From: Ostreococcus lucimarinus
Lineage: Eukaryota
Assembly (NCBI GenBank): GCA_000092065.1
Contig: CP000600.1
DNA length: 64,000 nt
Strand: one strand, 5' to 3'
Shown here one piece after another: positions 14,175 through 61,214 of this stretch (positions are counted from its first letter, which is position 1; each line of letters opens with the position of its first letter). The notes beneath the pieces are model-generated. The model did no database searches and was not told the origin of the DNA. It saw nothing but the letters and a program-made list of their open reading frames with translations. The translations under genes were made by a program, and so were the position numbers.

Positions 14175-14228
14175 CGAACGAACGAACGAACGAACGAACG
14201 AACGAACGAACGAACGAACGAACGAACG
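14175..14228. repeat. (GAAC)n tetranucleotide microsatellite, about 13.5 units
   Basis: Read directly: 'gaacgaacgaacg…' lies in the divergent promoter between the Patched-like gene (ATG 13928, minus strand) and the SNARE-like gene (ATG 14253, plus strand). GTCGAC/TGACGTC palindromes flank it. Confidence 0.9.
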
Positions 14229-14252
14229 ATCGTCGAGCCAACACCCGGCGCG

Positions 14253-15519: not shown

Positions 15520-18036
15520 CTACGGCATGAGCGATGGTGCGGCCTCGACGGCGCGCTTCTTGGACTCGATCACGAGACGCTTTTCGGCGAAGAACATGCG
15601 CTCGAGCTCGGGGGCGATGTCTTCCATCGTGGGACGCTCGAGGGCGTCGGCGCGCCAACATCGAGCGATGACGGCGATGTATTCTTCGGGAAGACGCACG
15701 GCGAACTTTGAGGCGTCATCGAGCGACGGACGCTCGCCGCGAAGTAGAGCGGCGACGATTTGCATCGGTGATAAACCGCTGAAGGGATCTTCGCGCGTGA
15801 GACACTCCCACATGACGACGGCGAAACTGTACACGTCAACGGCGGTCGTGTACCGAGGCTGGCCTTCGAGGAGTTCGGGAGCCATGAACTGGTACGTGCC
15901 GACGAGCGACATCATGCCGCCGCTCGTCGACGCGCCGGTGTGAAATTTCGACAACCCAAAATCTCCGAGTTTTATGGATCCGCCGTCGTCGATGAACAAG
16001 TTTCCAGACTTGACGTCGCGGTGGATGATGTCCGAAGCGTGCAAATACACCAAGCCTTTCGCGGCCTCGCTCATCCATTTCAGAACCTTAAACGCCGAAA
16101 GGGTCTTGTTCGGGTTGTGCAGGTACGCGTATAGCGATCCTTTGTCGCAGTAGTCCATGATGATGCATAGATTCGGCGGTGCTGTGGATGCGCCGATGAA
16201 TTGCACGATGTGACGATGTCGCAAACGCGTGAGGAAAGAAAGCTCGCGCTTGAACTCAGCCAAACCGCGCTCGTCGCTCACGTCGCTCAGCACGCACAAT
16301 CGCTTGATGGCAACGTCTGTTCCTCTATACTTACCGCGGAATACTTCGCCAAACGCGCCGCGACCGATTTGTCGACCAAACTCTAAATGGTCGAGTGGAA
16401 TCTCTTCAAAGTCGTTTTGTCGCGACGACGGTGTGGTCATCGGGCTTCGCGGCGGCTTTTGCGGCGCCAAAGGCGATGGCGTCGACTGCGGCGAACGTTT
16501 GCTTTCGCTCTCGTCTAAAGCATCGGTGAGCGTGCGCACGGCGAACGGATCGACGTACGTCGAAGCAGACGCTGGCCCGCTTTGAAGCGGCGTGAACTCG
16601 AGCGGCGCCGCAAACGCGTCCAAATCAAAATCGCTGGGTTTTCGACGATGACCGGGGCGCGCGCCCAAATCGAGCGGCGGCGCCAAGCCGAACGGATTAT
16701 AATGCTCGTTGTCATCATTGTCGTCGAACTTGATCAGAGGCGGAATCTCCCCCACGGCGATTATCTGCGGCGCCTGCGCCGCCAGATCGGCGTCCATCAA
16801 GTTTTCAAACGTCGGATCCAACACGTGTTTCTTAGCCGGCGCGTTGGCGCTTAAAATCTCCTTAATATCCGTCTCCTTCTCTAAGAACTTTGGTTCCGTT
16901 TCACCGAGCGTATGCACGATTTCCTGCCTCAGGAACGCCTTGCGTAACGCCACGCGAAAGCATTCTCGCAACGCGACGTGCTCGGCGCGAAACTTTTCGT
17001 TGTCACCTTCGGACAACCTATTCTCTTCCGCCAACGTCGCCGCAACGAAGAGCGCAGCGGCGTACGCTAAATCCGCCTCGCGCAACGCCAACCGCGCGAC
17101 GAAACCGATGAGATCGGTCCATTGGAACTTGTCGAATTCGTTCGTCGTCGCCGCGACGGCTTCGGGCAAGTGTCGCGCGGCGAGCTCGACGACTCGTCTC
17201 GCTTTTCCCGCCACCGCGATGAGCGCGCACAAACTGACCGAGGAAATTGGATCGTGCATCCCGATATCATCGTCCTCAAGCGTCTCCACGCGTGCGTCCA
17301 CGGAGTAATTGTTCTCAAACGCCACGAAGAAGCGATGAAACTTACTCTTCGCTCGAATCATCGCCGCGTACGGCGCCACCAGCCCCGCGCACGCGTCGAA
17401 CCCTTCGCGCTCGTAAAACCCCAAACCCTTCGTAAACTCCGCACTCGCCTTGCGTCTCGCCCCTCCGAGCGCCCCGAAATCGCTCGAATACGCCTCCAAA
17501 GGCTCATCCATCAATTTTTCTCGCCACGCGTACGTCGGATGCAAAATCGACGAGCTCCCGTGTTGCTGCAACGCGTGCACCACTCCACACATCCGCAGCG
17601 CCGACACCGAGCTTCGCAACACATCCACTCTCGCCAACGATTTCAGCATCATCTCTATGTTCTCACTCCGTCGCGTCGCGTCTTCGCACCACGTCGCTCG
17701 CACCAATCGTTCGACGTGCCGTCGCTTCGGCGCTCGTCCCTCGCTCGAGTGCATCGTCGCCTTCACGCACGAGTACTCGATCGGCGTCAGGCTCCGCATG
17801 TACGACTGGAACTTTTCATTGAACGTGCCGACGTCGTCCGCGAACGACGGCGTCGGCGTCAGCGCGCCGCTGAAACTCGACGCGCTTTCGTGATGATGAT
17901 GTTGGTGACTCAAACTCGTCGTCGCGCCGTCGCTCGACCGCGTCGGCGCGCGCGCGACGTCGCCGCGATCGCCGACGGCGTCGCTCGCGCCGTCGGTGCC
18001 CTCGCGCGCGTCGAAGACGCGCTCGGCGCGCGACAT
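15520..18036 (-). CDS. Raf-like (TKL) Ser/Thr protein kinase with an EDR1/CTR1-like N-terminal domain
   Basis: The C-terminal kinase domain contains 'IGRGAFGEVFRGKYRGTDVAIKRL', 'IIHRDVKSGNLFID' and 'KLGDFGLSK…'. The N-terminal roughly 400 aa ('…DLIGFVARLALREADLAYAAALFVAATLAEEN…') resemble the N-terminal domain of plant CTR1/EDR1 MAPKKKs. The start is set at the ATG of 'MSRAERVF' (18036). The ORF-track extension to 18339 is the antisense of the MMS19 N-terminus. Confidence 0.65.
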   Translation of the reverse strand: MSRAERVFDAREGTDGASDAVGDRGDVARAPTRSSDGATTSLSHQHHHHESASSFSGALTPTPSFADDVGTFNEKFQSYMRSLTPIEYSCVKATMHSSEGRAPKRRHVERLVRATWCEDATRRSENIEMMLKSLARVDVLRSSVSALRMCGVVHALQQHGSSSILHPTYAWREKLMDEPLEAYSSDFGALGGARRKASAEFTKGLGFYEREGFDACAGLVAPYAAMIRAKSKFHRFFVAFENNYSVDARVETLEDDDIGMHDPISSVSLCALIAVAGKARRVVELAARHLPEAVAATTNEFDKFQWTDLIGFVARLALREADLAYAAALFVAATLAEENRLSEGDNEKFRAEHVALRECFRVALRKAFLRQEIVHTLGETEPKFLEKETDIKEILSANAPAKKHVLDPTFENLMDADLAAQAPQIIAVGEIPPLIKFDDNDDNEHYNPFGLAPPLDLGARPGHRRKPSDFDLDAFAAPLEFTPLQSGPASASTYVDPFAVRTLTDALDESESKRSPQSTPSPLAPQKPPRSPMTTPSSRQNDFEEIPLDHLEFGRQIGRGAFGEVFRGKYRGTDVAIKRLCVLSDVSDERGLAEFKRELSFLTRLRHRHIVQFIGASTAPPNLCIIMDYCDKGSLYAYLHNPNKTLSAFKVLKWMSEAAKGLVYLHASDIIHRDVKSGNLFIDDGGSIKLGDFGLSKFHTGASTSGGMMSLVGTYQFMAPELLEGQPRYTTAVDVYSFAVVMWECLTREDPFSGLSPMQIVAALLRGERPSLDDASKFAVRLPEEYIAVIARCWRADALERPTMEDIAPELERMFFAEKRLVIESKKRAVEAAPSLMP

Positions 18037-21000
18037 GACGACGCCGTCGCCGCAGATTGCGACGCTCCGGCGTCGAACAATGGCGACGCGCGACGCCCTC
18101 GCGGCGTTCTGCGCCGCGTCGGCGCGCGACGACGACGCGACATCGCTCGCGGACGACGTCGCGCTCGCCGAGATCGCGCGCGCGATCGCGGACGGCGCGC
18201 GCGCGGTTTTAGACGTCGTCGTCGACCTGGAAGGATTTCTCACAGCGACCGAGCCAAAGCCGCGGGCGCGGGCGACGGAAATCCTCGCGCACGTCGCCGA
18301 AGAGTGCGCGATGACGCTGGATGATCGCGCGGTGCGCACGCTGAGCGCGTTCTTCGCGTCGAGGTTGAGCGATTTCGCGTCGACGGCGAGCGCGGCGCGC
18401 GGCGCCGAGGCGTTGGTGAAGCGAGCGAACGCGGAGGCGATCGAAGCGACGTCGAGGGCACTTTTCGCGGAGTGCGACGTGCAGGGGTTGAGACAAAGCG
18501 ATAGGGAAGCGTGCGTGCGGTTGGCGATCGAAATGCTGCGGAGTGCGCACGCTGGGGCGTGCGCGCGCGGGGCGGGGGACGGGGAGCCGAACGAGGCGTT
18601 GGCGAGAATAATCGGCGCGTTCGATGGGGAGAAGGATCCTAGGTGCGTGTTGGGATTGTGTGAGGTGTGGACATTGTTGCCAGGGGCGTTTGAGCGGTTC
18701 GGGGAGGGTGGAAAGGCGGTGTACGAGGAGAATGCGGAGGAATTGTACGACGTCGCGGCGAGTTACTTTCCAGTGAGTTTCAAGCCGCCGAGAGGGGATT
18801 CGATTAAGATTTCTCGTCGCCAACTCGCGGAGGCGGTCGAACGCGCGATGACGGCGTCACCAACATTCGCACCGTGGGCCGTCGCGCACGCGTTGGAGAG
18901 TTTGAACCCTGAACTAGGTCCGGGGAAGATGGCGGACGCCGCGCGCGCGGTTCGCGCGATGGGCGAACGTTTCGGCGCGAGCGTCATGGAAGAATACATG
19001 GGTATCGTTTGGCAAGCCATGCGCGCCGCATTGGCGCATCCCAACGCGACGAAGATGGAAGAAGACGACGACGTGCAGGCGACGACGCCGATGGCGGTGA
19101 TGACGACGATGTTTGCCAGCGAATTCACTCGCGGCACGCTCGCGCGCGCGGCGTTGACGGATCAATGCGTGCGCGACGCCGAAGTGACTTTGCGTCGCAT
19201 GGCGAACGACAGCTCGTCGGATGACGTCGACGGCGCGTGCGCGATGGAGACCTCAGACGAGGGGTGCTGTGGCGGTGGTTGCGGCGGTGGGAGTAAGTCG
19301 TCCGGCGAAGAAGCGGCGAGGGGAAAACTCGTCGTTGCGACGGCGAGTCGCGTGCTCGGTGCGGTTGCCGCGGCGACCCCCACACTCGCGCATGATGTCA
19401 TACACGGCACTTTAAAGTCACTTCTCGACGCCGCGAAGATTCCACGCGAAATAGATGGACTTCATTCGTCCAAAGCGGCGTACTTGGCTCTCATTCTTGC
19501 CACGCCCGCGCTCGGCGGCGCGTTGGATTGCTGCGAACGGAACGCCGAATCAAGTGTGCACATGAGCGTCTTGGACGATGAAAGTGAACGGTTGGTGGGG
19601 CTGTTTGCCGACGCAGCGCTGGGAAAGATCGAATCCCCGAGCTTTGACGAAGGCATCGTTTTAGGTTTAGCAGGATTGCACATGTTGTGCAAGTTTCCAT
19701 ACAGATTCGGTCTGGCGAGCGCTGAGTCGCGAGTCGCCGTGGCGAGCAAGCTATTCGATGCGATGATGGCGCAACACGTAAACGAGTCCGAGGCCGATAT
19801 CGAAGTGCGCATTGAGCGTTCGATCGATGCGCTCGTCGCCGCAGCGAGCGGTGCGGACGCAAAACTCGTTGACGCGATGTCGACGGGCGCCGTCGCTCTC
19901 CTTGCAGACAAAGTGACAGTTACGAATTTGCAAACCGTCGAAGCGACGCGAGCGATTCGTGCCCTCTGCGCCCTCGCGGCAGTAAATCAGATGATTCGAA
20001 ACGACGTCGCGCGATTGTTTTGCGGCGTTGTGCGTGATGCTATCGAGATTGGTTCGCCGAATGCCGAGGATCTGGTGTCCGCGATGTGCCGCGACGACGA
20101 CGGTGTACTGACGCGGTTTGTTTCATCCGACGAAGCACAGCGAGCGTGCGCCGATCTCACCACATTTTGTCTCGCGCGTGATCCTGCCACAACTGCAGAG
20201 TCCACCGTGCGCGTCGTCGCGAGCGCGGTGGCGAATTGTGACGACGCGACGCAAGCGCGATTCGCCGCCGAAGCCGTCGCGCTCTCGCGCGAAAAGCCGC
20301 TGATGGCTTGCGCGGTGATTTGTGGACTACGACCGCAAGCGGCGTTCGAAGCGACACACATGGTGGCCGCTCTCGACGAATTAACGCGCTCGCGCGGCGA
20401 CCGAGGATTCTCGATGTTCGTCGCCGCCGCCGTCGGTTCGGCGACGCACAAATTCCCGAGCGTGGACTTCGCGCCACCTATGGAAGACTTGACGGACGAG
20501 CGCACGACTTTCGTTCTCGGTGCGTGCTTGCGCGCGCGAGCGATGCGTCGAGACGATTCGTCGCCATCTGATGCGCTGGTTTCGTGTCTCGTTCGCGCTC
20601 TCGACGACAGTTCGTCGCCTGAAGCGTCGAGAGGCGCGGCGATGGCGTTGAGCATGGCTGTGGGATTCAGCGCTGCGCATCGCGACATCGGGCTAGGTTT
20701 GAAGTCTTCGACTCACGCGAGCGAAAAGTTCCTCGCGTGTCAACGTTTCTTCACGAAAGTTGCGCCGACTTTGATCAAGGGCGCGTACGAAGCCGTGGGC
20801 GCGAAGCGCTTGTCGAGATCTTACGCAGTCGTCAAGCTCGCCAGCGGCGTCGCCCCATCCGTGGCACTCAGTTCGCAGTTCAACCTGTTCCCGCTGTTAC
20901 CAGACGTGTTACACGCACTCACCGTCGGTACGCTCGCCGGTGACGACGACGCCGTGCGCGCGGCGCTCCTCCTCGTCGGCGCGCGACTCGCCGAGCCCGC

Positions 21001-35296: not shown

Positions 35297-35337
35297 CGTC
35301 GAATTGTGACGGTCTTCGCGTCGCAACGAGACGCGCG

Positions 35338-35856
35338 ATGGCGTACGTCGTCGAGCGGTGCGCGCGGGCGACGTCACCTACGACGACGCCGTCGCGCGCG
35401 ACGCCGTCGCGGCGCGCGATCGAGCGGTTCGTCGCGAGAGACGCGACCTCCGGCGTCGTCGTCGGCGCGTGCGCGTTTTGGACGCGCGACGACGGCGCGA
35501 CGGGATTCGTGAGCGGACTCGAGGTCGACAGAGCGCACCGACGACGAGGCGTGGCGACGACGCTCGTCAGGGCGGTCGAGCGGGAGTGCGCGCGGCGGGG
35601 GGCGACGCGGTGCGCGCTGAGCGTGAACAAGGGGAATCGCGGCGCGACGAAGACGTACGAGAGGTTGGGGTACGTCAGGGACGAGGAAACGCGAGGCGCG
35701 ATGGCGTGGGTGCGCGATCCGTTGGTGTTGGTGCAGCACAGGATGTCGAAACCGATCGGGATCGAAGGCGAACGCGGAGAAGAGCAGAGCGGCGCGGGGC
35801 GGAGCGGAGCGGAAGAGAGCGCGGCGGCGCGCGCGCGGACGGATGGATTAGATTAG
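35338..35856 (+). CDS. GNAT-family N-acetyltransferase
   Basis: 'GFVSGLEVDRAHRRRGVATTLVRAVERECARRGATRCALSVNKGNRGATKTYERLGYV' contains GNAT motif A (R-x-x-G-x-A) and the 'YERLGY' motif B. The ORF starts at an ATG. Confidence 0.5.
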   Translation: MAYVVERCARATSPTTTPSRATPSRRAIERFVARDATSGVVVGACAFWTRDDGATGFVSGLEVDRAHRRRGVATTLVRAVERECARRGATRCALSVNKGNRGATKTYERLGYVRDEETRGAMAWVRDPLVLVQHRMSKPIGIEGERGEEQSGAGRSGAEESAAARARTDGLD

Positions 35857-46659: not shown

Positions 46660-47077
46660 CGTCGTCGTCGTCCGTCTCGCGTCCGTCGCGGGCGTCGGTC
46701 GCGTTCGGAGCGCGTTCACGCGCGCGTTCGCGGTCGTCGCGGAGACGCGTCGCGGTCTCGCGTCGCGCGCGTCGCGCGGGGCCGTCGATCCGCGCGCGCG
46801 CCCGGCGTCGCTGACTCCCGGGTGTTTAGGGTTGAGGACATCTCCGCGTCGTCGGCGCGCGCGACGACGTCGAGGGGTTCGTTCGCGTTTCGGGCTCCAC
46901 AGTACGATCGAGCATCGCGTATTCCCGCGAGGCGCGGCGGTATATTTACTCCGAACACGAACTCGCCGCGCACGACGTCGACGGGTGGTCGGTTGGACGG
47001 CGCGCGCGCGCGCGAAGCGACGACGGCGCGGCAGACGGCGGCGGACGGGACGCGCGCGACGTCGGGATCGCATCGAT

Positions 47078-48274
47078 ATGAGCGAGCGCGCGCTTCACAC
47101 GTACGGCGCGCTGCTCGAAAGCCGCGCGCGCGGGGCGCTGTCGGACGCCGAGCGCGGCGCGGGCGCGCGGGCGACGACGAACGTCGCGCGTGCGCGCGCG
47201 AGCGATGCGTCGAGCGAGGACGAGGGAGACGCGGGAGGGCGAAGTCGACGGGAAGCGCTGGAGGACGCGGCGTGGCTGGAGGCGCGCGAGAGGGAGAACA
47301 AGACGTGGCGGGAACGCGCGCGCGAGGCGAGCGCGAAGGCGCGCGCGTGGTTGTACGCGAATTTATGGATCGCGTTCGCGCTGTACTTGGCGTTCGCGGT
47401 GTCGTGCCTGCAAGCGGTGAGGGACGAGCCGGGGTTCGAGACGTTCGTGGACGCGGTGTATTTCATCGCCATCACGGTGACGACGGTGGGGTACGGCGAT
47501 ATTTCTCCGCAGACGGACGCGGGGAAGATTTTTATGCTGTTTTTCATCATCGTCGGCATCGCGCTCGCGACGGTGGTGATTTCGAAGATCACCGACCTGA
47601 TCGTCGACGCCAAGGAGCGGTCGGAGGTGAAGGCGCAGGAGGAGTTGGATCGATCGATGGAGAATGATTTACATGCGCTGAGCGGGTCGCTCGGCGCGAC
47701 GATGAGCGCGGAGGACATAGCGCGGTTCAAGGAACGCGCGGCGTTGGAGCACCAGAGCGTGGCGCGTGTCCATCCCGTGCTTCGCGTGCTGCTCCATCCT
47801 CTCGGCGTCATCACCATCGTCATCCTCATCGGCGCCGCGACGTTTTGCTCGCTCGAGTCGGGCACGTCGTATCTCGACGGCGTGTGGTGGGCCGTCGTCA
47901 CGTCCACGACGGTCGGATACGGCGACATCTTACCGACGAATGATTCCTCCAAAATTTTCGCCGCGTGCTACGCCTTCATCGTCGTCGGCGTCATGGGCTG
48001 GGCCGTATCGCAGATTTGCGCGTCGGCGCTCGACAGCAAGGCGCACCACGACGGCGAGTTGCGTTCCTTCAAACTCACCGCGTCCTGGCTCGCCGAGCAG
48101 AGCGGCGATAAGGGTTACGTCGACAAGTTCGATTTCATTCGCTCCATGATCATCGCTCGCGGCGTCATGAGCGCCAAGGAATTCGATAAAATCGCCGCTC
48201 GATTCTCCCAACTCGACGTCAACGGCGACGGCGCGTTGGACGTCGGCGACTTGCTCAACGTCCCGCGCGCGTGA
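47078..48274 (+). CDS. Two-pore-domain K+ channel (TPK/KCO-like) with C-terminal EF-hand
   Basis: There are two pore loops, each with the selectivity filter 'TVGYGD' ('[13 protein letters not shown]' and '[13 protein letters not shown]'), flanked by TM helices, and a C-terminal '[13 protein letters not shown]' EF-hand loop. The ATG at 47078 is in frame within the longer ORF-track entry. Confidence 0.8.
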
Positions 48275-51580: not shown

Positions 51581-52885
51581 TCACAAGAGGCGAGCGATTT
51601 CGTCAGTCTCGAACTCGGGCGCTCGTCGAAGGCGACGTATGACGATGCCGACGATGGTGACAGCGACCACACAAAAAAGTGAAGCGCGCGACACGTCTAG
51701 GTCACGAGTGCTGACTACGATTGAAGCTTTCGAGCCCAGACGTGCGCTGACACTCGATGTCGGCGACGCTTCGCCGTTGAGCTCTCTTTGGAGCTCGGCG
51801 AGTTGTTGCTGCAAGCCGGGCATCGAAGGGTGGTCGGGCTTGCGTCTGCCGATCTTTCTGGTGAGCCGGCGAATATCCCGCTTAAGTTTAGCGGCCTGAT
51901 CCGGCGTCAAAGCCGGCGGCGAGGACACGGGCTCGGACGCCGGACTCGGACTCGATGTCGGCGACGCTTCGCCGTTGAGCTCTCTTTGGAGCTCGGCGAG
52001 TTGTTGCTGCAAGCCGGGCATCGAAGGGTGGTCCGGCTTGCGTCTGCCGATCTTTCTGGTGAGCCGGCGAATATCCCGCTTAAGTTTAGCGGCCTGATCC
52101 GGCGTCAAAGCCGGCGGCGAGGACACGGGCTCGGGCGCCGGACTCGGACTCTCCACCGGAGTCGACGACGGATGTGCGTCTGGAGTCGCCGTTGGCGGCG
52201 GGTTCGGTGGCGGATTCGGCGGCGGATTCGGCGGCGGACTCGGCGGCGGCGGGTTCGGCGGCGGATTCGGCGGCGGACTCGGCGGCGGCGGACTCGGCGT
52301 CCCCCCGTTCACCGTGGACGTCACCGACGACGTCACCGTGGACGACACCGACCCCTCACCCAACGCCGCGCCGACGCCCTTCGTCCACGCCCTCGCGCCC
52401 AGCGCCCGCGTCGCCTCTCCCCATCGCTCGATCGCGCCTCCTTCACCCGTTCCGCACGTCCCGATCGCGAGCGCCAAGCACGCGCACGCCCCCGCCGCGC
52501 GCCACCGTCTCGCGCGCGTCGTCCCTCGCCTCCGCGCGTCGTCCCTCGCGTCGTCGCTCGCGCTTCCGCGCGACGTCCGCGTCGCCCCGTACGTCCCTCG
52601 CGTCGTCGTCGCGTCGTCCTCGCTCGCGCGCGCGCGTCCCGTCGCGCGCGTCATCCCTCGCGCGTCCCGCGCGTCCCGCGCGTCCCGCGAACGCGTCGTC
52701 CCGAAGTCGTCCCGAACGCGCGCGCGGTCGGCGTCGAGCGGCGGCGCGACGGCGGTCGGGGTCGGCGTCGCGCGCGCCCGGCGCGACGCGCGCGCGGCGC
52801 CGTGACGGGGTCTAAGCGTTAGACGCAACTCCAATTCGTAGCCCGCGCGCGTGTATTTCGTAACACCATACACCGATCGGCACAT
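51581..52885 (-). CDS. Proline-rich type-I membrane protein with a 66-aa internal tandem duplication (hypothetical)
   Basis: There is a signal/anchor-like 'AAGACACLALAIGTCG', then P/S/N-rich 'PPPSPPPNPPPNPPPPSPPPNPPP', then 2×'EPVSSPPALTPDQAAKLKRDIRRLTRKIGRRKPDHPSMPGLQQQLAELQRELNGEASPTSS', then a TM helix 'LFCVVAVTIVGIVI' and a short tail. The start is uncertain: ATG at 52885 or an internal ATG near 52657. Confidence 0.45.
   Translation of the reverse strand: MCRSVYGVTKYTRAGYELELRLTLRPRHGAARASRRARATPTPTAVAPPLDADRARVRDDFGTTRSRDARDARDARGMTRATGRARASEDDATTTRGTYGATRTSRGSASDDARDDARRRGTTRARRWRAAGACACLALAIGTCGTGEGGAIERWGEATRALGARAWTKGVGAALGEGSVSSTVTSSVTSTVNGGTPSPPPPSPPPNPPPNPPPPSPPPNPPPNPPPNPPPTATPDAHPSSTPVESPSPAPEPVSSPPALTPDQAAKLKRDIRRLTRKIGRRKPDHPSMPGLQQQLAELQRELNGEASPTSSPSPASEPVSSPPALTPDQAAKLKRDIRRLTRKIGRRKPDHPSMPGLQQQLAELQRELNGEASPTSSVSARLGSKASIVVSTRDLDVSRASLFCVVAVTIVGIVIRRLRRAPEFETDEIARLL
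51755..52152. repeat. Tandem duplication, 2 × about 198 bp, 2 mismatches
   Basis: Read directly: 'cgatgtcggcgacgcttcgccgttgagctctctttggagctcggcgag…ggactcggact' is repeated head-to-tail inside the Pro-rich gene. Confidence 0.9.
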
Positions 52886-52920
52886 CGCGCGGCGACGGCG
52901 TCCGACGCGCGTTCGCGACG

Positions 52921-54189
52921 ATGGCGAGCGAGCGCGAGGGATTGTTGCGAACGAACGAACGCGCGACGACGACGACGGCGAACGCGCGCGACGACGACGA
53001 GGACGCGGCGACGCGCGCGGCGTGGACGAGGACGCGCGACGACGAGGATGGCGACGAGGGTGTTACGCGCGCGAGGGCGAGGACGCGGACGCGCGCGTCG
53101 CGCGCGCGGGCGTTCGGGATGGCGTTCGTCGCGTTGTGCGCGCTCGTGGGGGGGCTAGCGCTCGTGAAAGCGGAACGAGCGCGCGGGGCGGGGAGGATCG
53201 ATCGCGCCGCGCTCGGCGGCGCGGCGAGGGCGCAAAACGCGCCCGGACACGTGCCGGGATTGGCCGAACACGTCGAGAGCGTGACGCGGAGCACGAAGTT
53301 TCGGGCGATTACGTTCTGTAATAAGTCGTATTGGACGTTCGCGCACGCCTTGCTGGAGTCGATGAAGGCTGTGGCGCCGTCCATCGTGGACTTTTGGACA
53401 GTCATCGTTCCGGACGAGGCGACGAAGGAGTTCATCGAAAAGGAAACGGCGGGGGCGGGGCACAAGATTGACGTCTACGTCGACGATGACTTACGCAAGC
53501 AAGTCGCGAAGTTTGCCGAAGCGAGCAAAGAAGAGCTCAAGTCGATGCTGTCGTGGCGGCGCGTGCACGCGGTGCAAACGCTCGTGGACAACGACTACAC
53601 GGTGATGTTCCTCGAGCCCGACGCGGTGATGCAAAAGAACCCTTTGCAGCTCATCCACGACCAGCTCACGACGAACGATCTCGTGCTCGGGGCGGACTAC
53701 GGCTTAGGGACGACGGCGCGCAAGCACGCGAACACAAAGGTGATCGTGGCCAAGCCTTCCGTGCAAGGGAAGAAGCTGCTCAACGTCTGGCAGCGCGCCG
53801 AACAGACGTACTCGGGCGATAAGGCGGAGGTTGGGTTCCTTCTTAACGACGTCATCCCGCACATCGACGCCCTGACGGCAAAGATACAAATCCTGGACCA
53901 GACCGTCGTCGGAAACTACCTCACCCACCACGAAAAAGCCGGGCAAGCCATCGTCACGGGGATGGGTTGCGACAACGTCGATTTCAAAATAAACTTTATG
54001 GCGCAGTTGTTGCGACACGTCCAACCGGACGATCCGAACGCCCCGAAGAGCGCGATAGATTACGAAGGCGTCTCCGCGGGATGCGACTACGCGGGCCGAG
54101 AGAAAGTCTTCAAAATTTCGAACGAGTTCGCAAAGAAGAAGATGGCGGCAAAGTTGGGATCGAACAAGGCGACTTCGAGCGATGAGTAA
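52921..54189 (+). CDS. Type-II membrane glycosyltransferase-like protein (nucleotide-diphospho-sugar transferase fold)
   Basis: The topology is a cytoplasmic acidic N-terminus, a TM helix 'FGMAFVALCALVGGLALV', then a luminal domain with 'RAITFCNKSYWTFAHALLESM', 'YTVMFLEPDAV' (DxD-like) and 'LVLGADYG'. It resembles plant GT77-type (Nucleotid_trans) enzymes. The ORF starts at an ATG. Confidence 0.5.
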   Translation: MASEREGLLRTNERATTTTANARDDDEDAATRAAWTRTRDDEDGDEGVTRARARTRTRASRARAFGMAFVALCALVGGLALVKAERARGAGRIDRAALGGAARAQNAPGHVPGLAEHVESVTRSTKFRAITFCNKSYWTFAHALLESMKAVAPSIVDFWTVIVPDEATKEFIEKETAGAGHKIDVYVDDDLRKQVAKFAEASKEELKSMLSWRRVHAVQTLVDNDYTVMFLEPDAVMQKNPLQLIHDQLTTNDLVLGADYGLGTTARKHANTKVIVAKPSVQGKKLLNVWQRAEQTYSGDKAEVGFLLNDVIPHIDALTAKIQILDQTVVGNYLTHHEKAGQAIVTGMGCDNVDFKINFMAQLLRHVQPDDPNAPKSAIDYEGVSAGCDYAGREKVFKISNEFAKKKMAAKLGSNKATSSDE

Positions 54190-54262
54190 ACGACAGAGAG
54201 TACGCACGCGCGCGACGGTCTCGGCTTAGATTTTTGTATAATTCCTACAACGGTCATCAAAA

Positions 54263-56251
54263 CTAACGTCTCGGTCGAACTCGCCGCCCATCGTTCGCTT
54301 CATCGTCGACAGCTCCATCGTCGAGCGCGCGGCGGTCGACGGCGGCGCGATCCTCACCGCCGCCGCCGCCGGGTGTGCTGAGAAGTTCTTGCGTGGGGGG
54401 TATCGTCAAATCGGCTTGCGAGATCATCGCCGCCATCGCATCTTGCTCAGCGATGCCGCCGTCGTGTGGCATCGCGTCCAAAACCGCGGCAGATGTGGGC
54501 GGCGCGAGGCGCTGCACGCGAGAGGCGAGAAAATTGCTGAACGCGCTCATCGCCGGCAGCGTCGCAAGGTTCGCCGCCATGTCTGTCCCCGCATTCGCCA
54601 GATTCGGCAGTGTGAGAACGCCCTGTGTACCATCTACGTTTCGAGCCGCCGCCGCCGCCACCGCTGCCGCGGTCGCCCCGGGGGGGGCGTGCATGGAGAC
54701 TCCGGCGCCGTCTTGCGCGGGCACGGGCGCGCTCGGGAACACTTCAGCCTTCGGACGCAGAGCGCGCATTTCTGCGACAGAGCTTAATATTTCGCCAGCC
54801 AAGTGCGGACATGAAATGTTCATAGCTTCGTAGCCCTCCGTCGACATGACGTCGCTCAGGTTGGCGGCGATGAAGCTCATGCACGCGCGCTTGAGCGCGT
54901 CGGCGTGGTTCAACTCGGCGAGCATGAGAGTGTTCGCTACGGTGTCAACGTCCACGGATTCGCACAAACGTGCCTCGCACATCGCGCGAAGTCTGCTCAA
55001 GTCAAATCTATCCGCGGCGACGAGCAAGTGTTGCGTCATTGGAACGTCCAAGTTGACTTCGTCCGAAGCCCGACCCGTCGCTCGCGGACCCACCAACGCG
55101 CCAGTCGCGTCGATTTCGCCGTCGGCATCCCCCCTGTGCGCGCCACCCAGCAGGGCGTGCGCGCCGTCATCACTGACGCCCGAGCCTTCGCGCGGGATTT
55201 CGTCTGCGTACACGAAGTGCAACAACAAACGAAACACGCTCGGCTTTATGTCGAGAAGCGTGCACACGCCCTCGCGTCCTTCGCGCATGGCGGCTCCTGT
55301 GCGGAGCATGGCGGCGAACACGCTCGAGCGTGACGACAAGATGAGTTTATGCGCTCTAAACTTTTCGCCCTCGACGTCGAAGGTGCAGTCGAAATCAGAG
55401 TCCGGGTCGTGCAGTAATCGAACGAGGTGTTTTCCGATCGTCGGATACGAGGGCACGTTGACGCTCGCCGCCGGCAGCAACTTCATGTTCTTGTTCAGCG
55501 CCCCACCGCTGGTGACGACAAGCTCTATCTCGTATCGTATCACGACGACATCGTTCAGCAGATACCCCGTCCCCGATCCCTCCAAAACCGACCTGCGGAC
55601 GAATTTACGATAGCCGTGACAGTTGCGCGCTTGCGGGTCTTGCCTCGCGCACGAAATTTTGACCGCCCCTTGCTCGCGCTGTCGCCCTTTCGTGATGTGT
55701 CGCCCGTTCCCACTTTGATCTACCAGGGTAAATCTGTGAAACGCCCGCACGACGCGTCCTTGTCCGCTTTGCACCACCCCCAACGGCCTCGGCCCTTCGC
55801 CGATGAGGGCGACGAAGAGCGCCGCGTACGGATCGTCTTGCGGCGCGCTCGGCGCGTTCCCATCGCTCATCGAGCGCTTACCGTCTGGATAAAACAACAG
55901 CACCCATTCGTGTCCGCCCACCATGAACCGATCGCTCGCGATCGGTTCACCGTCGCCCAATCCCTTCAACAAGCTGTACCCGCTTATCGTGTGTTCGTGG
56001 CGCCCGATGACCGTCGTCGTCGACGTTCGCGACGCCGCGGACACGCCCGCCGGCGTCGTCGTCGCCGGACACGCCGCACTCGCCCCGATCGCCGTCGTCG
56101 CCGTCGTCGCCATCGCGCGCGCGTTCCATCGTTCGTGTCGCTCCGGCGTCGAATCCGCCGGTCGTCGCGCCGCGTGCGTCGCGTCGCGCGCGTCGCCCGG
56201 CGCGCGCGCGCGCGCGCGGGGCGTCGTCGACGGCGTCGCGCGCGGATCCAT
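54263..56251 (-). CDS. MATH-BTB (SPOP/BPM-like) Cullin-3 substrate adaptor with long C-terminal extension
   Basis: A MATH domain ('HTISGYSLLKGLGDGEPIASDRFMVGGHEWVLLFYPDG') is followed by BTB ('DCTFDVEGEKFRAHKLILSSRSSVFAAMLR…CTLLDIKPSVFRLLLHFVYADEIP') and then a roughly 400-aa Ala-rich tail. The start is set to the ATG at 56251; the ORF-track N-terminal 190 aa is antisense of ArgD. Confidence 0.7.
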   Translation of the reverse strand: MDPRATPSTTPRARARAPGDARDATHAARRPADSTPERHERWNARAMATTATTAIGASAACPATTTPAGVSAASRTSTTTVIGRHEHTISGYSLLKGLGDGEPIASDRFMVGGHEWVLLFYPDGKRSMSDGNAPSAPQDDPYAALFVALIGEGPRPLGVVQSGQGRVVRAFHRFTLVDQSGNGRHITKGRQREQGAVKISCARQDPQARNCHGYRKFVRRSVLEGSGTGYLLNDVVVIRYEIELVVTSGGALNKNMKLLPAASVNVPSYPTIGKHLVRLLHDPDSDFDCTFDVEGEKFRAHKLILSSRSSVFAAMLRTGAAMREGREGVCTLLDIKPSVFRLLLHFVYADEIPREGSGVSDDGAHALLGGAHRGDADGEIDATGALVGPRATGRASDEVNLDVPMTQHLLVAADRFDLSRLRAMCEARLCESVDVDTVANTLMLAELNHADALKRACMSFIAANLSDVMSTEGYEAMNISCPHLAGEILSSVAEMRALRPKAEVFPSAPVPAQDGAGVSMHAPPGATAAAVAAAAARNVDGTQGVLTLPNLANAGTDMAANLATLPAMSAFSNFLASRVQRLAPPTSAAVLDAMPHDGGIAEQDAMAAMISQADLTIPPTQELLSTPGGGGGEDRAAVDRRALDDGAVDDEANDGRRVRPRR

Positions 56252-56342
56252 CGCGTCGGATCGCGATCGGGTCGGGTCGGGTCGCGCGTCTCGAAGTCGC
56301 GCTCGCTCGGCGCGCGTCTCGATTCGCGTCTCGCGCGGGATG

Positions 56343-57827
56343 GATGCGACGCGCGTCGCCGCACTCGTCGTCGACGGAGCCCGACACCGCGTCGCGTCGC
56401 GTTGCGTCGCGTCGCGTCGCGCGCGCGGGATGCGCGGGGCGTCCGCGACGCCGTTTCGCGCGACGCGCGCGCGCGTCGACGCGCGCCCGCGACGCGTCGG
56501 AGGAGGAGGACGACGAACGACGACGACGACGACGACGACGACGCGAGCGTTCCTGCGCGGTGTGTTCGGCGGTGGGAAACGAGGAAAGCGCGACGTCGTC
56601 GACGCGGATGAGGTGCGAAAGAACGAACGCGAGTGCGTGCTGCAAACGTACGGCCGAGGCGAGACTGAGGTGATGGTTCGGGGAAAGGGTTGCGCGCTGT
56701 TCGACGCGAGCGGGAAGGAGTTTTTAGATTTCACGAGCGGGATCGCGGTGAATTGCCTCGGACACGCGGATGAAGGCGTGGCGCGAGTGATCGCCGAACA
56801 AGCGCGCACGCTGACGCACACGTCGAACTTGTATCACACCGAACCGGGGGCGACGCTCGCGAGAAAGCTCACGGCGACGTCGTTCGCCGACAGAGTCTTC
56901 TTTTGCAACTCGGGAACGGAGGCGAACGAGGGGGCGTTGAAATTCGCGAGAAAGTACGCCAAAACGCGCGCGCAGGCGCTGGGGAAAAACGCCGGCGACG
57001 CGGCGTGGGAGACGGTGAGTTTTGAAAACGGTTTTCACGGCCGAACGTTCGGCGCGCTTTCGCTGACGTGGAAGGAGGGCTACCGCGCGCCGTTCGCCCC
57101 GGGACTTCCGGGGAACACGTTCACGCCGTACGGTGACTTGGAAAAAGCGCGTCAAGTGATCGTCAAAGGTCGCACGTGCGCCGTGTTCGTCGAGCCGGTG
57201 CAAGGCGAAGGTGGCATTTACCCCGCCGACGCCGAGTTCTTGCGAGGCTTGCGAGCGATTTGCGACGAAGCCGACGCCTTGCTCGTGTACGACGAGGTGC
57301 AGTGCGGCTTGGGACGAACGGGTAAACTCTGGGGCCATCAACTTATTAAAGACGCCGAGCCGGATATGATGTCGGTGGCGAAACCGCTGGCGAACGGCTT
57401 GCCCATCGGCGCCGTGCTGATGAAAGAAAAAGTCGCCGCCGTCATGGCCGCGGGCGACCACGGATCGACGTTCGCGGGCGGGCCTTTGGTGTGCGCCGTG
57501 GCGAACGAGGTCTTCGACCGGGTGAGTGATCCCGCCTTCTTAGCCAACGTCACCGAACGCGGGAACGAGTTGAAGTCGTCGCTCACCGAAAAGCTCGCCG
57601 GTCACCCGCGTCTTCGCGAGGTTCGCGGCGCGGGCTTGCTCGTCGGCGTGCAATTCGACTGCCCCACCGCCCCGCTCGTCGCGGCGTGTCGCGCGCGCGG
57701 TCTGTTGACCATCACCGCTGGTAAGGGTGACATCTTGCGTCTCGTCCCTCCGCTCATCGTCTCGAGCGCGCAGGTGCAAAAGGCCACCGACATCGTCAAG
57801 GAGTGCGCGTTCGAAGCCTTGCGGTGA
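56343..57827 (+). CDS. ARGD: Acetylornithine aminotransferase (class-III PLP aminotransferase), with transit-peptide-like N-terminus
   Basis: 'VLQTYGRGETEVMVRGKGCALFDASGKEFLDFTSGIAVNCLGH', 'FFCNSGTEANEGALKFARKY', 'LVYDEVQCGLGRTGKLW' and 'KPLANGLPIGAV' match the ArgD/OAT family. The ATG is at 56343. Confidence 0.85.
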   Translation, partial: DATRVAALVVDGARHRVASRCVASRRARGMRGASATPFRATRARVDARPRRVGGGGRRTTTTTTTTTRAFLRGVFGGGKRGKRDVVDADEVRKNERECVLQTYGRGETEVMVRGKGCALFDASGKEFLDFTSGIAVNCLGHADEGVARVIAEQARTLTHTSNLYHTEPGATLARKLTATSFADRVFFCNSGTEANEGALKFARKYAKTRAQALGKNAGDAAWETVSFENGFHGRTFGALSLTWKEGYRAPFAPGLPGNTFTPYGDLEKARQVIVKGRTCAVFVEPVQGEGGIYPADAEFLRGLRAICDEADALLVYDEVQCGLGRTGKLWGHQLIKDAEPDMMSVAKPLANGLPIGAVLMKEKVAAVMAAGDHGSTFAGGPLVCAVANEVFDRVSDPAFLANVTERGNELKSSLTEKLAGHPRLREVRGAGLLVGVQFDCPTAPLVAACRARGLLTITAGKGDILRLVPPLIVSSAQVQKATDIVKECAFEALR

Positions 57828-58253
57828 TTCGCCTGTTTTTGTTCCGCCCCCGAGATGCGAACGGACACACCGCCCTCGGTCGGTCGCCCGGCGCGTGGGG
57901 TTCGGCATTTTCACTTTCGTGTTCGCGTCGATGCGACCACACGGCGTACGTTTCCTTCTTAATACGCATAAATCACCCACTCGCGTCGGCGCCGTATTGA
58001 ACGCGCGGACCGCGCGAACGCGTCGTCGCGCGCGTCGTCGTCCGTCGTCGCGCGCGCATTGGCGTTGACGCCGCACACGCGCGCGAGGACGACGCGCCGC
58101 GCGCGCTCGCGGTCGTGACGACGGCGCATCGAGGACGCGCCGACGACGACGCGAAATATTTCGACGCACCGCGTCGCGGCGTGAACATGGAGGTGCGCGA
58201 CGCGCGACGCGTTCGACGGACGCCCTAGAGCGTTGGGATAACATCGGCGCGGC

Positions 58254-59485
58254 ATGAGACCTAGCGCGCGCGGCGACGGCGGACTGACGACGCGCGCGCG
58301 AGCGACGACGGCGCGCGAACGCTCTCAGGGAGCGAAGGCGCAATTACCCAAAGAGTTATCATGGATCCCCGATCTCGTGCACGGCGCGTTCTTCGCGCCG
58401 TGCGACGTGCACAGCACGGGGAGCAAAGGCGAGCAAGTCAATTTGTTCTCGTTATCGTCACGACGCTCGATGTGTCCGGCGTGCGCGGCGGAGCGCGACG
58501 TGTTCGACACGATACAGGTGCGACGCGCGACGCGAGCGATTTTTATTTCAAGCGTCGGGCCCGCGGCGCGGACGACGGCGCCGAGGCGCGGCGCGCGCGC
58601 GGACGACGCGACTCGGGGCTTTGAATCGAGCGAAATGCGGGAAAAGCTCGCGGCCTCAGCTGTCTTTCGCGCGGCGCTTTTAGGGTTTAGGGTTTGGGCG
58701 CGTTCGCGCGGAGGCGACGTACGACTGACGCGCGCGACGAATCGTCTCGCTCGAAACGCTAGATTCGAAGGAGTTCGTATCATAACGTCGTGCGCGTGCA
58801 AGACGTGTGTAAGCTCATGGACGTGACGGGTATACAGACGTACATCATCAACTCGGCGCGCGTCGTGTTTTTAAACGAACGCCCGCACCCGCGGTCGACG
58901 AATAAAAAAGACGGGGAAAAGCTGATGAATCATTCGTCGTCGAGCGGGCGCGGCGCGGGGAGTGGCGAACGATATCGCGCGGGCGCGGGCGCGCAGGCGC
59001 AAATGCACTCGGAGTGTTCGTATTGCGCGCGCATTCTTCAGAGCGACAACAACAAGTATTGCTCGATTTCGTGCAAGATGAACGGCGGCGAAGATATGAG
59101 CGCCAAGGGCGGGATAGACATGTCGTACGCGGAGGAAACGATCAAGCCGACGCCGCGGAAGAGTACGCAGGCCAAAAATGCCGCCAAGGCTGAGAAGGCG
59201 AATAGCGACCGACGGTCACCGGCTCGAAACAAGTCACCCGCGAGCGACACTAGCACCAAGCGCGCTCGCGGCTATTCGCCCGTCTCGGTGAAGAGCGAAG
59301 ACGAATACTCGCCCTCGAGCGAAGGCGCGACGCCGATGCGAGCGGTGGCGGCGGCGACGACTGGGAAACGTAAATATAGCTCAAAGGATCGAAACGGCGA
59401 CGCGCCGGTGACGCCGACGCTTCTCATCGTCACGCCCGCGGTGCCGCATCGGCGCAAGAGTAAGCCGAAAAAATCGCCTCACTGA
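58254..59485 (+). CDS. PLATZ: PLATZ-family zinc-dependent DNA-binding protein; 2 exons (58254..58517 and 58763..59485)
   Basis: Exon 1 encodes '[18 protein letters not shown]…[16 protein letters not shown]'. Donor GTGCGA at 58518 and acceptor TAG|ATT at 58763 (CTGAC 40 nt upstream) define a 245-nt phase-0 intron. Exon 2 encodes '[44 protein letters not shown]…[21 protein letters not shown]'. Joined, the two exons are colinear with plant PLATZ ('…IQIRRSSYHDVVRVSEIQK…[22 protein letters not shown]…FRFCSLGCK'). Confidence 0.8.
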
Positions 59486-60007
59486 CGCAGCCGACGGACG
59501 AGTCTCCGCGCGCGCGACGCGATGTACATCACGTAAGATACGACCATTCTTCTCGAATCATTATTTACGACCGACGACGATCCATTTGCAGTGTGACATC
59601 AACGATTGAAGAAAACTTCGCGCGGCGCCGCGAGCGATGGATTTCACCCTTCGCCAGTTCGCGTGTTCGGGCCCTGCCAGTCGCGTCGCTCGGCACCGAC
59701 CCGTCGACGTGACTTTTCGCTGCGCGACGACGACGACGACGGGAACGCGTCCGCGGCGACTTCGGCATGTTCAAGGATGAGAAGCGCACGCAGTACTCAC
59801 CGCTCATGACGCGCGAGGAACAGGTGCGTCGTCGCGCGCGTCGCGCGCGCGCCCGCGCCATCCGCCGGATTGGCGCCCCTTCGCAATCACGACCGAGCGC
59901 GCGCGAACGCTGTCGCGCGCGTCGAGCGCGCGAACGCGCCGTAGACGATGAAGACGAACGATGCGGAGACTGACGGATGACGACGCGCGCGCACAAAGGC
60001 CGAGGCC

Positions 60008-60967: not shown

Positions 60968-61214
60968 TTCGCGCTCGAGAAACCGCGTCTTCTTGCACTT
61001 TCGTTTAGCGCGGGAACCCCTATTTCCCGCTTGTTCATCTTCACTCAACGCAATTTAATCCAAAGATTTGACTAATCAGTACTACATTCTTGCACCGCCA
61101 CCTAGATTTCTATTTTTTCGTTCGGTATCGTTTCGCGCACGCATACGTGGGCGAATCGTTTTGCATTCCTACATCTTCCAAATTCAGTTTCACCGCTACG
61201 TTCTATCCGCTACG

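Follow-up and report, generated by a model that had tools for sequence, protein, structure and literature searches.

Start codons and spacer lengths of four head-to-head gene pairs in the compact genome of Ostreococcus lucimarinus

Divergent gene pairs in compact genomes

Typical bidirectional promoters have transcription starts ~100–1000 bp apart. In Ostreococcus tauri 2288 bidirectional transcript pairs have been described (PMC4035068). Intergenic regions in Ostreococcus are very short and UTRs overlap; in O. tauri these overlaps cause fusion of assembled transcripts (PMC4378021). In O. tauri, the level of 5mCG is at its minimum, and that of 6mA at its maximum, at the ATG itself (bioRxiv 10.64898/2026.07.10.737489). 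For Micromonas, the mean intergenic distance is 167–211 nt (PMC4378021, PMC4815162), and transcript length exceeds coding length by ~145 nt (PMC4815162). Overlapping transcription in compacted microsporidian and nucleomorph genomes is known from the accounts given in PMC3629993 (citing Williams et al. 2005 PNAS) and PMC2387174; very short 5′ UTRs were reported for the intracellular stage of Encephalitozoon cuniculi (PMC3629993).

We have analysed a stretch of 64 000 nt from O. lucimarinus CCE9901 (contig CP000600.1; ‘the window’), with 41 genes and 84% of coding sequence, in which the MMS19 and PGAM-like proteins had exact matches to O. lucimarinus CCE9901 proteins. A first-pass annotation had listed four divergent pairs with almost no space between start codons, kinase|MMS19, PGAM-like|GNAT, Pro-rich|glycosyltransferase and MATH-BTB|ArgD (pairs 1–4), as instances of one pattern. 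Divergent orientation and gene identity were confirmed for all pairs (Pfam matches Pkinase/PK_Tyr_Ser-Thr, MMS19_N, MMS19_C, His_Phos_1, GNAT, Nucleotid_trans, MATH+BTB+BACK and Aminotran_3), and the coordinates were all recovered in the sequence, save that the ATG of ArgD is at 56340, not 56343, which makes the distance in pair 4 88 bp and not 91 bp. The idea of a single pattern did not survive: two of the spacers are real (43 and 41 bp), one is an artefact and one measures 88–316 bp. The reading we favour, and on balance regard as probable, is one of ordinary, locally extreme compaction, with two validated pairs at 41 and 43 bp, pair 3 not tight and pair 4 within the range just given. Coordinates are collected in Table 1.

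Table 1. Genes, spacers and other features at the four junctions (positions in the window)
Feature	Coordinates	Strand	Remarks
Kinase gene, 838 aa	15520..18036	-	Pfam Pkinase/PK_Tyr_Ser-Thr; N-terminus disordered
CATG tetranucleotide	18034..18037	both	Minus-strand kinase start; plus-strand ATG 18035
Kinase–MMS19 spacer, 43 bp	18037..18079		Between supported start codons
MMS19 gene, 1068 aa	18080..21286	+	Best-supported start 18080
PGAM-like histidine-phosphatase gene, 608 aa	33470..35296	-	Exact match XP_001422773.1
PGAM-like–GNAT spacer, 41 bp	35297..35337		No ATG on either strand
GNAT acetyltransferase gene, 172 aa	35338..35856	+	Pfam Acetyltransf_1 aa 29–112
Hypervariable non-coding region	52655..52920		Upstream of glycosyltransferase; contains ATG 52885
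Glycosyltransferase gene (Nucleotid_trans), 422 aa	52921..54189	+	Pfam; start supported
MATH-BTB–ArgD junction	56113..56430		MATH-BTB start 56251 or 56113; ArgD 56340 or 56430

We see here no new mechanism but genome compaction of a kind already known. As in the bidirectional pairs of mammals, plants and O. tauri, divergent genes have a common short upstream region; pairs 1 and 2 share with them also a linkage kept in related species and a G+C/CpG-rich sequence with no TATA-like block. The genes are on opposite strands with adjacent 5′ ends, the starts being validated for pairs 1 and 2, and linkage is conserved between species for these two pairs but not for pairs 3 and 4. The difference is that the 41–43 bp are measured here from ATG to ATG, not from transcription start to transcription start, and leave no room for two separate core promoters. 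Spacers too short for promoter and UTRs are likewise found in microsporidia and nucleomorphs, where control regions and transcripts intrude on the neighbouring genes. Ostreococcus, however, lives freely, is phototrophic and has a genome of 13 Mb; its median head-to-head spacer in the window is ~290 bp, and only a minority of its junctions are as tight as these.

Within Mamiellophyceae (O. tauri, O. lucimarinus, Micromonas) we deal with the same phenomenon in the same group; still, published descriptions (PMC4378021, PMC4815162) concern genome-wide averages and 3′–3′ overlaps, whereas the junctions considered here are 5′–5′. Neither 5′–5′ junctions of ~42 bp nor their conservation across Ostreococcus lineages were found described in the literature searched. 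A suggestion that such an arrangement sets this organism apart is not supported: for Ostreococcus, very short intergenic regions, UTR overlaps and bidirectional pairs by the thousand had been described already (PMC4378021, PMC4035068).

Start codons at the four junctions

At a G+C content of ~62% stop codons are rare and frames stay open far upstream of the true start; the rule of taking the first ATG of an open frame is biased to short spacers. The isopropylmalate dehydrogenase frame has its first ATG at 47073, only 4 bp from the ATG of the adjacent channel gene (47078); the resulting 138-codon extension has a non-coding score, −0.32 bits/codon (on this scale coding sequence has a mean of +0.32 and the non-frame mean is −0.36), and in gene-caller models the coding sequence begins at 46659.

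The 35-bp spacer of pair 3 was rejected as an artefact as well. The ATGs at 52885 (minus strand) and 52921 (plus strand) are indeed 35 bp apart, and the glycosyltransferase has a well-scoring N-terminus (+0.31 bits/codon for the first 66 codons) with an identical 422-aa protein encoded on many contigs. The Pro-rich start, on the other hand, was refuted by comparison of strain haplotypes. Three out of five (L010, L011 and L013) carry an insertion of ~190–270 bp at window position 52877/52878 as well as 1-, 2- and 4-bp indels at ~52780–52815; in these strains the counterpart of ATG 52885 gives short ORFs, of 47, 119 and 29 aa. The Pro-rich ORF had no Pfam match, the exact 434-aa protein was absent from the protein collection searched, and the codon score of the start region was +0.05. 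Since position 52885 falls inside hypervariable non-coding DNA, the 35-bp distance does not reflect a real spacer; the likely length is 266 bp. Linkage of this pair was not conserved, the partners being different in L007–L009.

For pair 4 the minus-strand ATG at 56251 was confirmed, while the claim of tightness depends on the choice of candidate starts, with which the spacer may measure 88–316 bp. Codon scores were +0.098 for 56114–56251 and −0.045 for 56340–56429; in the ArgD frame two ATGs (55923 and 56007) precede the one at 56340, and MATH-BTB orthologues show conservation only from ~aa 36–47. Strain differences are confined to 56340–56430, and a 15-bp indel in this interval is uninformative because it is both a multiple of three and a triple 5-bp repeat. 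The NCBI model of ArgD (XP_001422626.1) starts at 56673, which is too late; a conserved block of the N-terminus is missing from the model, and so is the presumed transit peptide. The MATH-BTB–ArgD junction was absent in other species (partners again differ in L007–L009). An internal true start probably accounts for a part of pair 4.

One could extend this argument to all four tight spacings, with every true start internal and spacers of several hundred bp. Artefacts were shown for pair 3 and for the 47073 frame and are plausible for pair 4; also, a Met is present near kinase residue 80 in all lineages and one variant has no kinase ATG. Such a general explanation is nevertheless highly improbable in view of the data on pairs 1 and 2.

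In pair 2 the two ATGs, 35296 (minus strand) and 35338 (plus strand), are 41 bp apart as claimed, and by orthologue N-termini, domain content and codon score both starts are solid. The PGAM-like protein is conserved from residue 1, with the SWDGLRRSFIE block (the form in the closest orthologues) making the very N-terminus in ~9 orthologue clusters; its first 123 codons score +0.32 bits/codon. For GNAT any later ATG costs the protein its domain: the next in-frame one is at 35701, and a start there would delete Acetyltransf_1. In 15 strain variants the GNAT protein retains M(A/S)YVVERC at its N-terminus, whereas residues 9–25 vary by in-frame indels. The length of 41 bp was seen in six contigs with identical GNAT protein; strain contigs show no differences in this spacer.

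In the open frame 15520..18762 the ATG at 18036 comes first, and comparative data support it as the start codon of the kinase (TKL/MLK, Raf-like; domain at aa 552–807). With +0.245 bits/codon in frame, the N-terminal 79 codons score as coding; inside sister lineages the N-terminal alignment holds from the first Met onwards and has indels of only 6 and 12 nt, staying in frame unlike the adjacent spacer. In lineages A, B and E the first residues of the protein are ‘MS’; an RVH/RVF motif is found in lineages A–E. A metagenome contig (P0008) has a Met to Leu change at the kinase start codon which abolishes both ATGs of the CATG. If this variant is real and viable, initiation of the kinase could also occur at Met80 (17799), the Met noted above.

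For MMS19 we conclude from the comparison with orthologues that the start is most likely at 18080, not at 18035. The ATG at 18035, which opens an extension with the residues MTTPSPQIATLRRRT, is used in the NCBI model XP_001422610.1 (1083 aa, exact match); the in-frame ATG 18080 is 45 nt further. About 10 of the 13 orthologues (34–62% identity) begin 0–4 residues from Met 18080, while P0093, P0097 and P0102 have longer N-termini, which are unrelated. The 15-aa extension made by starting at 18035 is absent from orthologues and scores −0.17 bits/codon. A start later than 18080 is not expected either because the next ATG, 18311, would truncate MMS19_N (PF14500, E = 1.1e-55), whose profile position 1 corresponds to a residue 47 aa after Met 18080 (aa 62 counted from 18035). 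With MMS19_C matched as well (PF12460, E = 9.4e-8, though its 31.9 bits are just under the gathering score of 32.9 bits), the protein has both domains of the MMS19/MET18 family.

The first-pass annotation had both genes of pair 1 starting in the CATG palindrome. If so, the 1083-aa MMS19 would be made, the coding regions would overlap by 2 bp and each mRNA would start within the coding sequence of the partner. From ATG 18035, where the NCBI model starts, the frame is that of MMS19 and stays open, and position −3 is a G; lineage B (L002, L018) has a CATG too, with the plus-strand ATG in frame and open for 23 codons. Besides, for an MMS19 transcript beginning upstream of 18035, AUG 18035, in its good context, would be the first that scanning ribosomes encounter, and by the first-AUG rule the 1083-aa protein would be made in O. 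lucimarinus, even though the extension is not conserved. Still, we consider joint use of the two ATGs quite unlikely. The extension is missing from orthologues and looks non-coding; in L021 indels of 3 and 5 bp have put the ATG equivalent to 18035 out of frame, and the lineage E spacer has an 8-bp indel; the natural variant mentioned above loses both ATGs at once. Nor is the CATG remarkable, because base −1 is C at 15 of the 41 starts in the window, so that a CATG is expected at ~37% of starts; by base composition, the plus-strand ATG of such a CATG would be in frame and open to the partner ~8% of the time. The junction is identical in the window, L016 and L017, therefore the extension is without within-species variation. 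With 18080 as its most likely start, MMS19 does not share a start codon with the kinase; on comparative evidence, the shared CATG is probably the product of an MMS19 model starting too early and of chance.

Thus, of the statement on pair 1, the CATG at 18034–18037 and the kinase ATG stand, the MMS19 ATG most likely does not, and the spacer becomes 43 bp. Comparison of orthologous starts bore out 18036 for the kinase and 35296 for the PGAM-like gene and spoke for 18080 in MMS19. Read from the four starts of pairs 1 and 2, the proteins have the N-termini MATRDAL, MSRAERVF, MKSSWDGL and MAYVVERC. Internal true starts, offered in the first-pass annotation as the other explanation of the tight spacing, apply to the MMS19 half of pair 1, to pair 3 and probably to a part of pair 4, but not to the kinase, PGAM-like and GNAT genes. 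The notion of an extreme bidirectional promoter holds for kinase|MMS19 and PGAM-like|GNAT, by orthologue N-termini, frame-keeping indels and codon statistics, and not for all pairs.

Conservation of the short spacers and likely position of transcription starts

The 10 head-to-head spacers in the window measure 41, 43, 178, 266, 283, 297, 324, 396, 418 and 586 bp; the median being 290 bp (n = 10), the 41- and 43-bp spacers are genuine extremes. The smallest stop-to-stop gaps are 16–20 bp and the smallest stop-to-ATG gap is 53 bp.

Linkage of the kinase and MMS19 genes is kept in five Ostreococcus lineages, with spacers of 43, 67/69, 64–76, 85 and 47/55 bp, and in a sixth, more distant one. Within lineages the spacer, with its 3-, 5- and 8-bp indels, diverges faster than the coding sequence on either side. 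Across the genus pair 1 has stayed tightly linked while the spacer sequence changes freely. The PGAM-like and GNAT genes are head-to-head also in L014 (spacer of 104 bp) and L015 (~100 bp or more).

The 43-bp spacer, which would have to accommodate a promoter and leader region common to both genes, has no TATA-like or A/T-rich block; at its centre lies CGCAGATTGCG, an imperfect palindrome. Over the DNA preceding the 41 starts the G+C profile had no A/T-rich dip, hence no positional promoter signal, and a scan of the four junctions for inverted repeats gave only short CG-rich pairs, as predicted from composition. Three candidate elements were rejected. GCGTCGCAA is present in both tight spacers; it was picked post hoc and occurs 3 times in the window versus 4.7 expected. 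A loose ‘ATG(C/T)GACGC’-like element in pair-1 spacers of several lineages was indistinguishable from the very common CGACG words. Of 26 CAATTC occurrences, 5 had a same-strand start no more than 150 nt downstream of them, versus 1.25 expected; this excess, also post hoc, was discounted because A/T-rich words are expected to gather outside coding sequence.

With ATGs 41 and 43 bp apart, any transcription starts upstream of them have to be close together or crossed. The core promoter of RNA polymerase II occupies roughly 30–40 bp upstream of the transcription start. A spacer of 41–43 bp cannot hold two separate core promoters and two leaders; by this geometry and what is known of RNA polymerase II, each core promoter must overlie the partner's leader and first codons.

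The distribution of upstream ATGs tells about leader length, provided that scanning is ordinary. Within 50 nt of the 41 starts we observed 6 upstream ATGs versus ~22 expected (at least 14.5 with in-frame bias allowed for), a depletion partly built in because the starts were chosen as first in-frame ATGs; the density is about a half of background out to ~150 nt. In L021 the MMS19 start is overlapped by a 92-codon out-of-frame ORF, whose upstream ATG lies at −37 and has a purine at −3, and in L002 upstream ATGs at −56 and −52 open out-of-frame ORFs overlapping the kinase start. This pattern suggests leaders of, at most, a few tens of nt. Both transcription starts would then most likely lie inside the spacer or at its edges, and the 5′ ends may be antisense to each other over, at most, a few tens of nt. 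Several short upstream ORFs are present in the lineage E spacer, where they are evidently tolerated. Literature searches found no mapped transcription starts or 5′-RACE for Ostreococcus; some Logan contigs, e.g. SRR847307 (1.7 kb across three genes), might be RNA-derived. Strand-specific RNA-seq and MNase-seq data on O. lucimarinus CCE9901 are public and were analysed anew in bioRxiv 10.1101/2025.04.21.649811.

Alternatively, the transcripts of pairs 1 and 2 could be crossed over a longer distance, starting 50–200 nt or more inside the coding sequence of the partner, as has been reported for nucleomorphs and for the spores of microsporidia. Their 5′ ends would then overlap extensively in antisense, and this could either couple the expression of the two genes or set one against the other. 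UTR overlap in O. tauri is frequent enough to fuse neighbours in transcript assembly (PMC4378021). Longer leaders of the kinase and PGAM-like genes would go unpenalised because the minus strand has no ATG for 107 nt upstream of the former and for >160 nt upstream of the latter; the halved density of upstream ATGs to ~150 nt fits as well. Yet long crossed transcripts would make 18035 the first AUG of MMS19, against the orthologue N-termini, and the good-context out-of-frame ATGs described above (L021, MMS19; L002, kinase) argue for shorter leaders in a sister lineage. Furthermore, the two UTRs in Micromonas together average only ~145 nt (PMC4815162), and the 6mA peak and 5mCG minimum of O. tauri are at the ATG itself (bioRxiv 10.64898/2026.07.10.737489). 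We regard long crossing as unlikely.

Beyond the reading of locally extreme compaction, one could speculate that Ostreococcus has a class of divergent pairs served by a single initiation region of ~40–85 bp with no conserved sequence or TATA-like element. Both polymerases would start inside this region, leaders would be ~10–40 nt or less, each core promoter would sit in the leader and first codons of the partner, and such dual use would lock the pairs together across the genus while the spacer drifts. We put this forward only tentatively, being ourselves rather doubtful of it.

Implications for gene models and for promoter size

The finding leaves current understanding unchanged and illustrates a feature already reported for the group. 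With respect to annotation, the MMS19 model of O. lucimarinus (XP_001422610.1) probably starts 15 codons too early, and, in G+C-rich compact genomes, gene calling by the first ATG produces false near-zero spacers.

If the class of pairs outlined above did exist, a free-living eukaryote would have a part of its genome on minimal promoters in the style of Giardia or microsporidia. The pairs with spacers of ~42 bp could show whether dual use of DNA constrains gene order, and, in a free-living alga that can be transformed, these two spacers are handy natural test cases for how small a working bidirectional promoter of RNA polymerase II may be.

Start codons of the divergent pairs

The first-pass annotation had described four head-to-head pairs with almost no space between their start codons, each gene being taken, implicitly, to start at the first ATG of its open frame. 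The gene identities were backed by Pfam, and upon reading the sequence we found all coordinates to be right with one exception: the ATG given for ArgD at 56343 is at 56340. Stop codons are rare at the G+C content of the window (∼0.55–0.68), so frames run open far upstream of real starts (that of the Raf-like kinase for 242 codons past its ATG); the first-ATG rule thus yields a lower bound on each spacer. In a control case (46660–47078), isopropylmalate dehydrogenase has its first in-frame ATG at 47073, and only 4 bp separate it from that of a potassium channel (47078). The 138-codon extension is clearly non-coding, at −0.32 bits/codon, on a scale where coding sequence averages +0.32 and wrong frames have their 95th percentile at +0.06; public gene calls put the start at 46659. 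This tight pair is false, a product of the rule.

Two of the four tight pairs proved to be real by orthologue N-termini and codon scores. For the kinase (minus strand) codons 1–79 score +0.245 bits/codon; its N-terminus aligns from the first Met in two sister lineages, with indels there of only 6 and 12 nt. The protein opens with ‘MS’ in three lineages and has an RVH/RVF motif in five of five; on these comparisons the kinase starts at 18036. A Met near residue 80 is present in all lineages. Its partner MMS19 (plus strand; 1083-aa translation identical to XP_001422610.1) most likely starts at 18080, as judged from 13 aligned orthologues (34–62% identity), most of which start 0–4 residues from the Met encoded there, e.g. 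MATRDALAAFCA, MRASADALRAYC, MDVRALARRCA and MRDELARFCA. None of the 13 has a counterpart of the 15 residues from 18035, and this extension scores −0.17 bits/codon; a start at the next ATG, 18311, would truncate the MMS19_N domain. The spacer would therefore be 18037–18079, 43 bp. The start codons said to be shared in a CATG at 18034–18037 most likely reflect a gene model starting too early.

In P0008, a kinase variant from one JGI metagenome contig (20,261 bp), the start codon at 18036 is changed from Met to Leu, which also removes the plus-strand ATG at 18035; one further residue differs and the rest is identical. Either a rare allele or an error in sequencing may account for the change. Kinase orthologues at four comparison loci (L001–L003 and L006) have weak Pfam ANTH matches in the N-terminal half (window ∼17100–17800), which suggests an unusual architecture, ANTH-like plus kinase.

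The second pair consists of a PGAM-like histidine phosphatase (minus strand; 608-aa translation identical to XP_001422773.1) and a GNAT gene (plus strand). By the exact matches of this translation and that of MMS19, the window belongs to Ostreococcus lucimarinus CCE9901. In ∼9 orthologue clusters the N-terminal block of the phosphatase (SWDGLRRSFIE in the closest orthologues) is at the extreme N-terminus, and codons 1–123 score +0.32 bits/codon. The Pfam GNAT domain is retained only with a start at 35338, and all 15 strain variants have the N-terminus M(A/S)YVVERC. Therefore, the 41-bp spacer is real. The genes are also head-to-head at L014 (104 bp) and L015 (roughly at least 100 bp). GNAT residues 9–25 (35362–35412) are hypervariable between strains, with in-frame indels and many substitutions (variants of 172, 174 and 175 aa), while the first eight residues and the remainder are nearly invariant.

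The proline-rich and ArgD junctions

The 35-bp spacer between the Pro-rich gene (minus strand) and a glycosyltransferase (plus strand) was refuted as an artefact of a Pro-rich start at 52885. Three of four strain-level haplotypes with an identical glycosyltransferase protein have an insertion of roughly 190–270 bp at 52877/52878 and small indels (1, 2 and 4 bp) at ∼52780–52815; there, the counterpart of ATG 52885 begins a short ORF in each case (47, 119 and 29 aa). The segment 52655–52885 scores +0.05 bits/codon. The start is likely to be 52654, which would give a spacer of 266 bp. Between strains, hypervariable DNA lies upstream of the glycosyltransferase, its insertion/deletion being rich in GATCG/CGATCGCGTCGATCG repeats, and flanking genes are >99% identical. 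As for the Pro-rich gene, it is specific to the lineage, variable and rich in repeats, and other Ostreococcus species have no orthologue in the equivalent place; its tandem duplication of 198 bp (66 aa) at 51837–52034 is missing in four strain haplotypes, and a PPPxPP repeat (∼52208–52250) differs in length among strains.

For MATH-BTB (minus strand) and ArgD (plus strand) the spacer is somewhere between 88 and 316 bp. Conservation among MATH-BTB orthologues begins only at about residue 36–47, and one orthologue begins 5 residues ahead of Met47 (encoded at 56113). ArgD conservation begins at residue 69 (RAFLxGxFGG); the stretch 56340–56429 scores −0.045 bits/codon and is the sole polymorphic one among strains. 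The NCBI model XP_001422626.1 (384 aa), starting at 56673, is probably truncated at its 5′-end (56340–56673): it lacks the block RAFLRGVFGG...VRKNERECVLQTYGRGETEV, conserved with the L008 orthologue, and also omits a presumed transit peptide.

The divergent partner of MATH-BTB in other species is PIH1 (spacers of 233–238 bp) and that of ArgD is a different gene (296 bp), which makes the junction in the window evolutionarily recent. Gene order of glycosyltransferase, MATH-BTB, ArgD, PIH1 and a 340-aa gene (51581–63725) is rearranged relative to L007, L008 and L009, with divergent partners swapped: PIH1 with MATH-BTB and ArgD with the 340-aa gene in other species, MATH-BTB with ArgD and PIH1 with the 340-aa gene in the window. 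The latter unit (PIH1 minus, 340-aa gene plus; spacer ∼300 bp; 61215–63725) is inverted as a whole in L010 (18200–20710) and L013 (18213–20723), compared with L011 and L012, all four being metagenome haplotypes of O. lucimarinus type; the inversion is polymorphic, with breakpoints on either side of the pair that leave it unsplit.

The kinase/MMS19 spacer across Ostreococcus

Protein look-ups and one metagenome scan yielded orthologous loci in five Ostreococcus lineages (A–E), where kinase and MMS19 are head-to-head, as they are in a sixth, more distant lineage.

Spacer between kinase and MMS19 start codons at orthologous loci
Lineage	Loci	Spacer (bp)
A	window, L016, L017	43
B	L002, L018–L020	67
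B	L021	69
C	L003, L022, L023	64–76
D	L004	85
E	L024	55
E	L025–L028	47

Within lineages the spacer has indels of 3, 5 and 8 bp and diverges much faster than flanking codons; hence it is non-coding, its sequence only weakly constrained. As for the CATG, it is present at the kinase start in three of five lineages, its plus-strand ATG is out of frame with MMS19 at L021, and C is the −1 base at 15 of 41 starts in the window; by these comparisons it is not special.

Packing of the window and the proposed promoters

In our own gene map, built on codon statistics, Pfam and orthologues, 41 genes cover 84% of the 64 kb, with ten head-to-head spacers of 41, 43, 178, 266, 283, 297, 324, 396, 418 and 586 bp (median 290 bp). 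The median stop-to-stop gap is 73 bp (minimum 16 bp) and the median stop-to-ATG gap 233 bp (minimum 53 bp). The two tight pairs are true extremes, and the genome around them is uniformly compressed. Convergent stop codons are 16 bp apart at GNAT/actin (35856/35873) and 20 bp at 30171/30192, and a tandem stop-to-ATG gap is just 53 bp (3893/3947); in such places 3′-ends would have to overlap, or the upstream gene would have to contain a promoter. The ATG at 14253 is immediately preceded by a (GAAC)n microsatellite, aacgaacgaacg... (∼14195–14235).

Start codons 41–43 bp apart would leave any transcription start with less than ∼43 bp of non-coding DNA upstream. Given this geometry and what is generally known of core-promoter placement for RNA polymerase II, the core promoter of each gene in a tight pair would overlap the leader and first codons of its partner. 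Upstream ATGs within 50 nt of the 41 starts number 6 against ∼22 expected (at least 14.5 after correction for in-frame selection bias). Sister haplotypes have upstream ATGs, out of frame and in good context, that overlap the main start: of MMS19 at L021 (−37) and of the kinase at L002 (−56/−52). Such sequence features favour short leaders in the tight pairs; with a start at 18080 the MMS19 leader is predicted to be at most 44 nt in the window's strain. We saw no TATA-like or A/T-rich feature at starts and junctions of the window and no convincing motif shared among the tight spacers.

Very short intergenic regions are a published trait of Ostreococcus (PMC4378021, PMC4035068). In O. tauri UTRs overlap, so that transcript assemblies join adjacent genes (PMC4378021), and 2,288 bidirectional transcript pairs were reported (PMC4035068); in Micromonas intergenic distances average 167–211 nt and both UTRs together ∼145 nt (PMC4815162). 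For microsporidia and nucleomorphs, overlapping transcription and very short leaders have been described (PMC3629993, PMC2387174). The idea of an extreme bidirectional architecture is partly supported: the tight spacing of the first two pairs stands, the proline-rich spacer does not and the shared CATG most likely does not. Set against published compaction in Ostreococcus, microsporidia and nucleomorphs, these two pairs are further instances of a known phenomenon. Mildly new are spacers of ∼42 bp separating validated start codons and the keeping of kinase and MMS19 <90 bp apart across the genus, even though the sequence of their spacer drifts freely.
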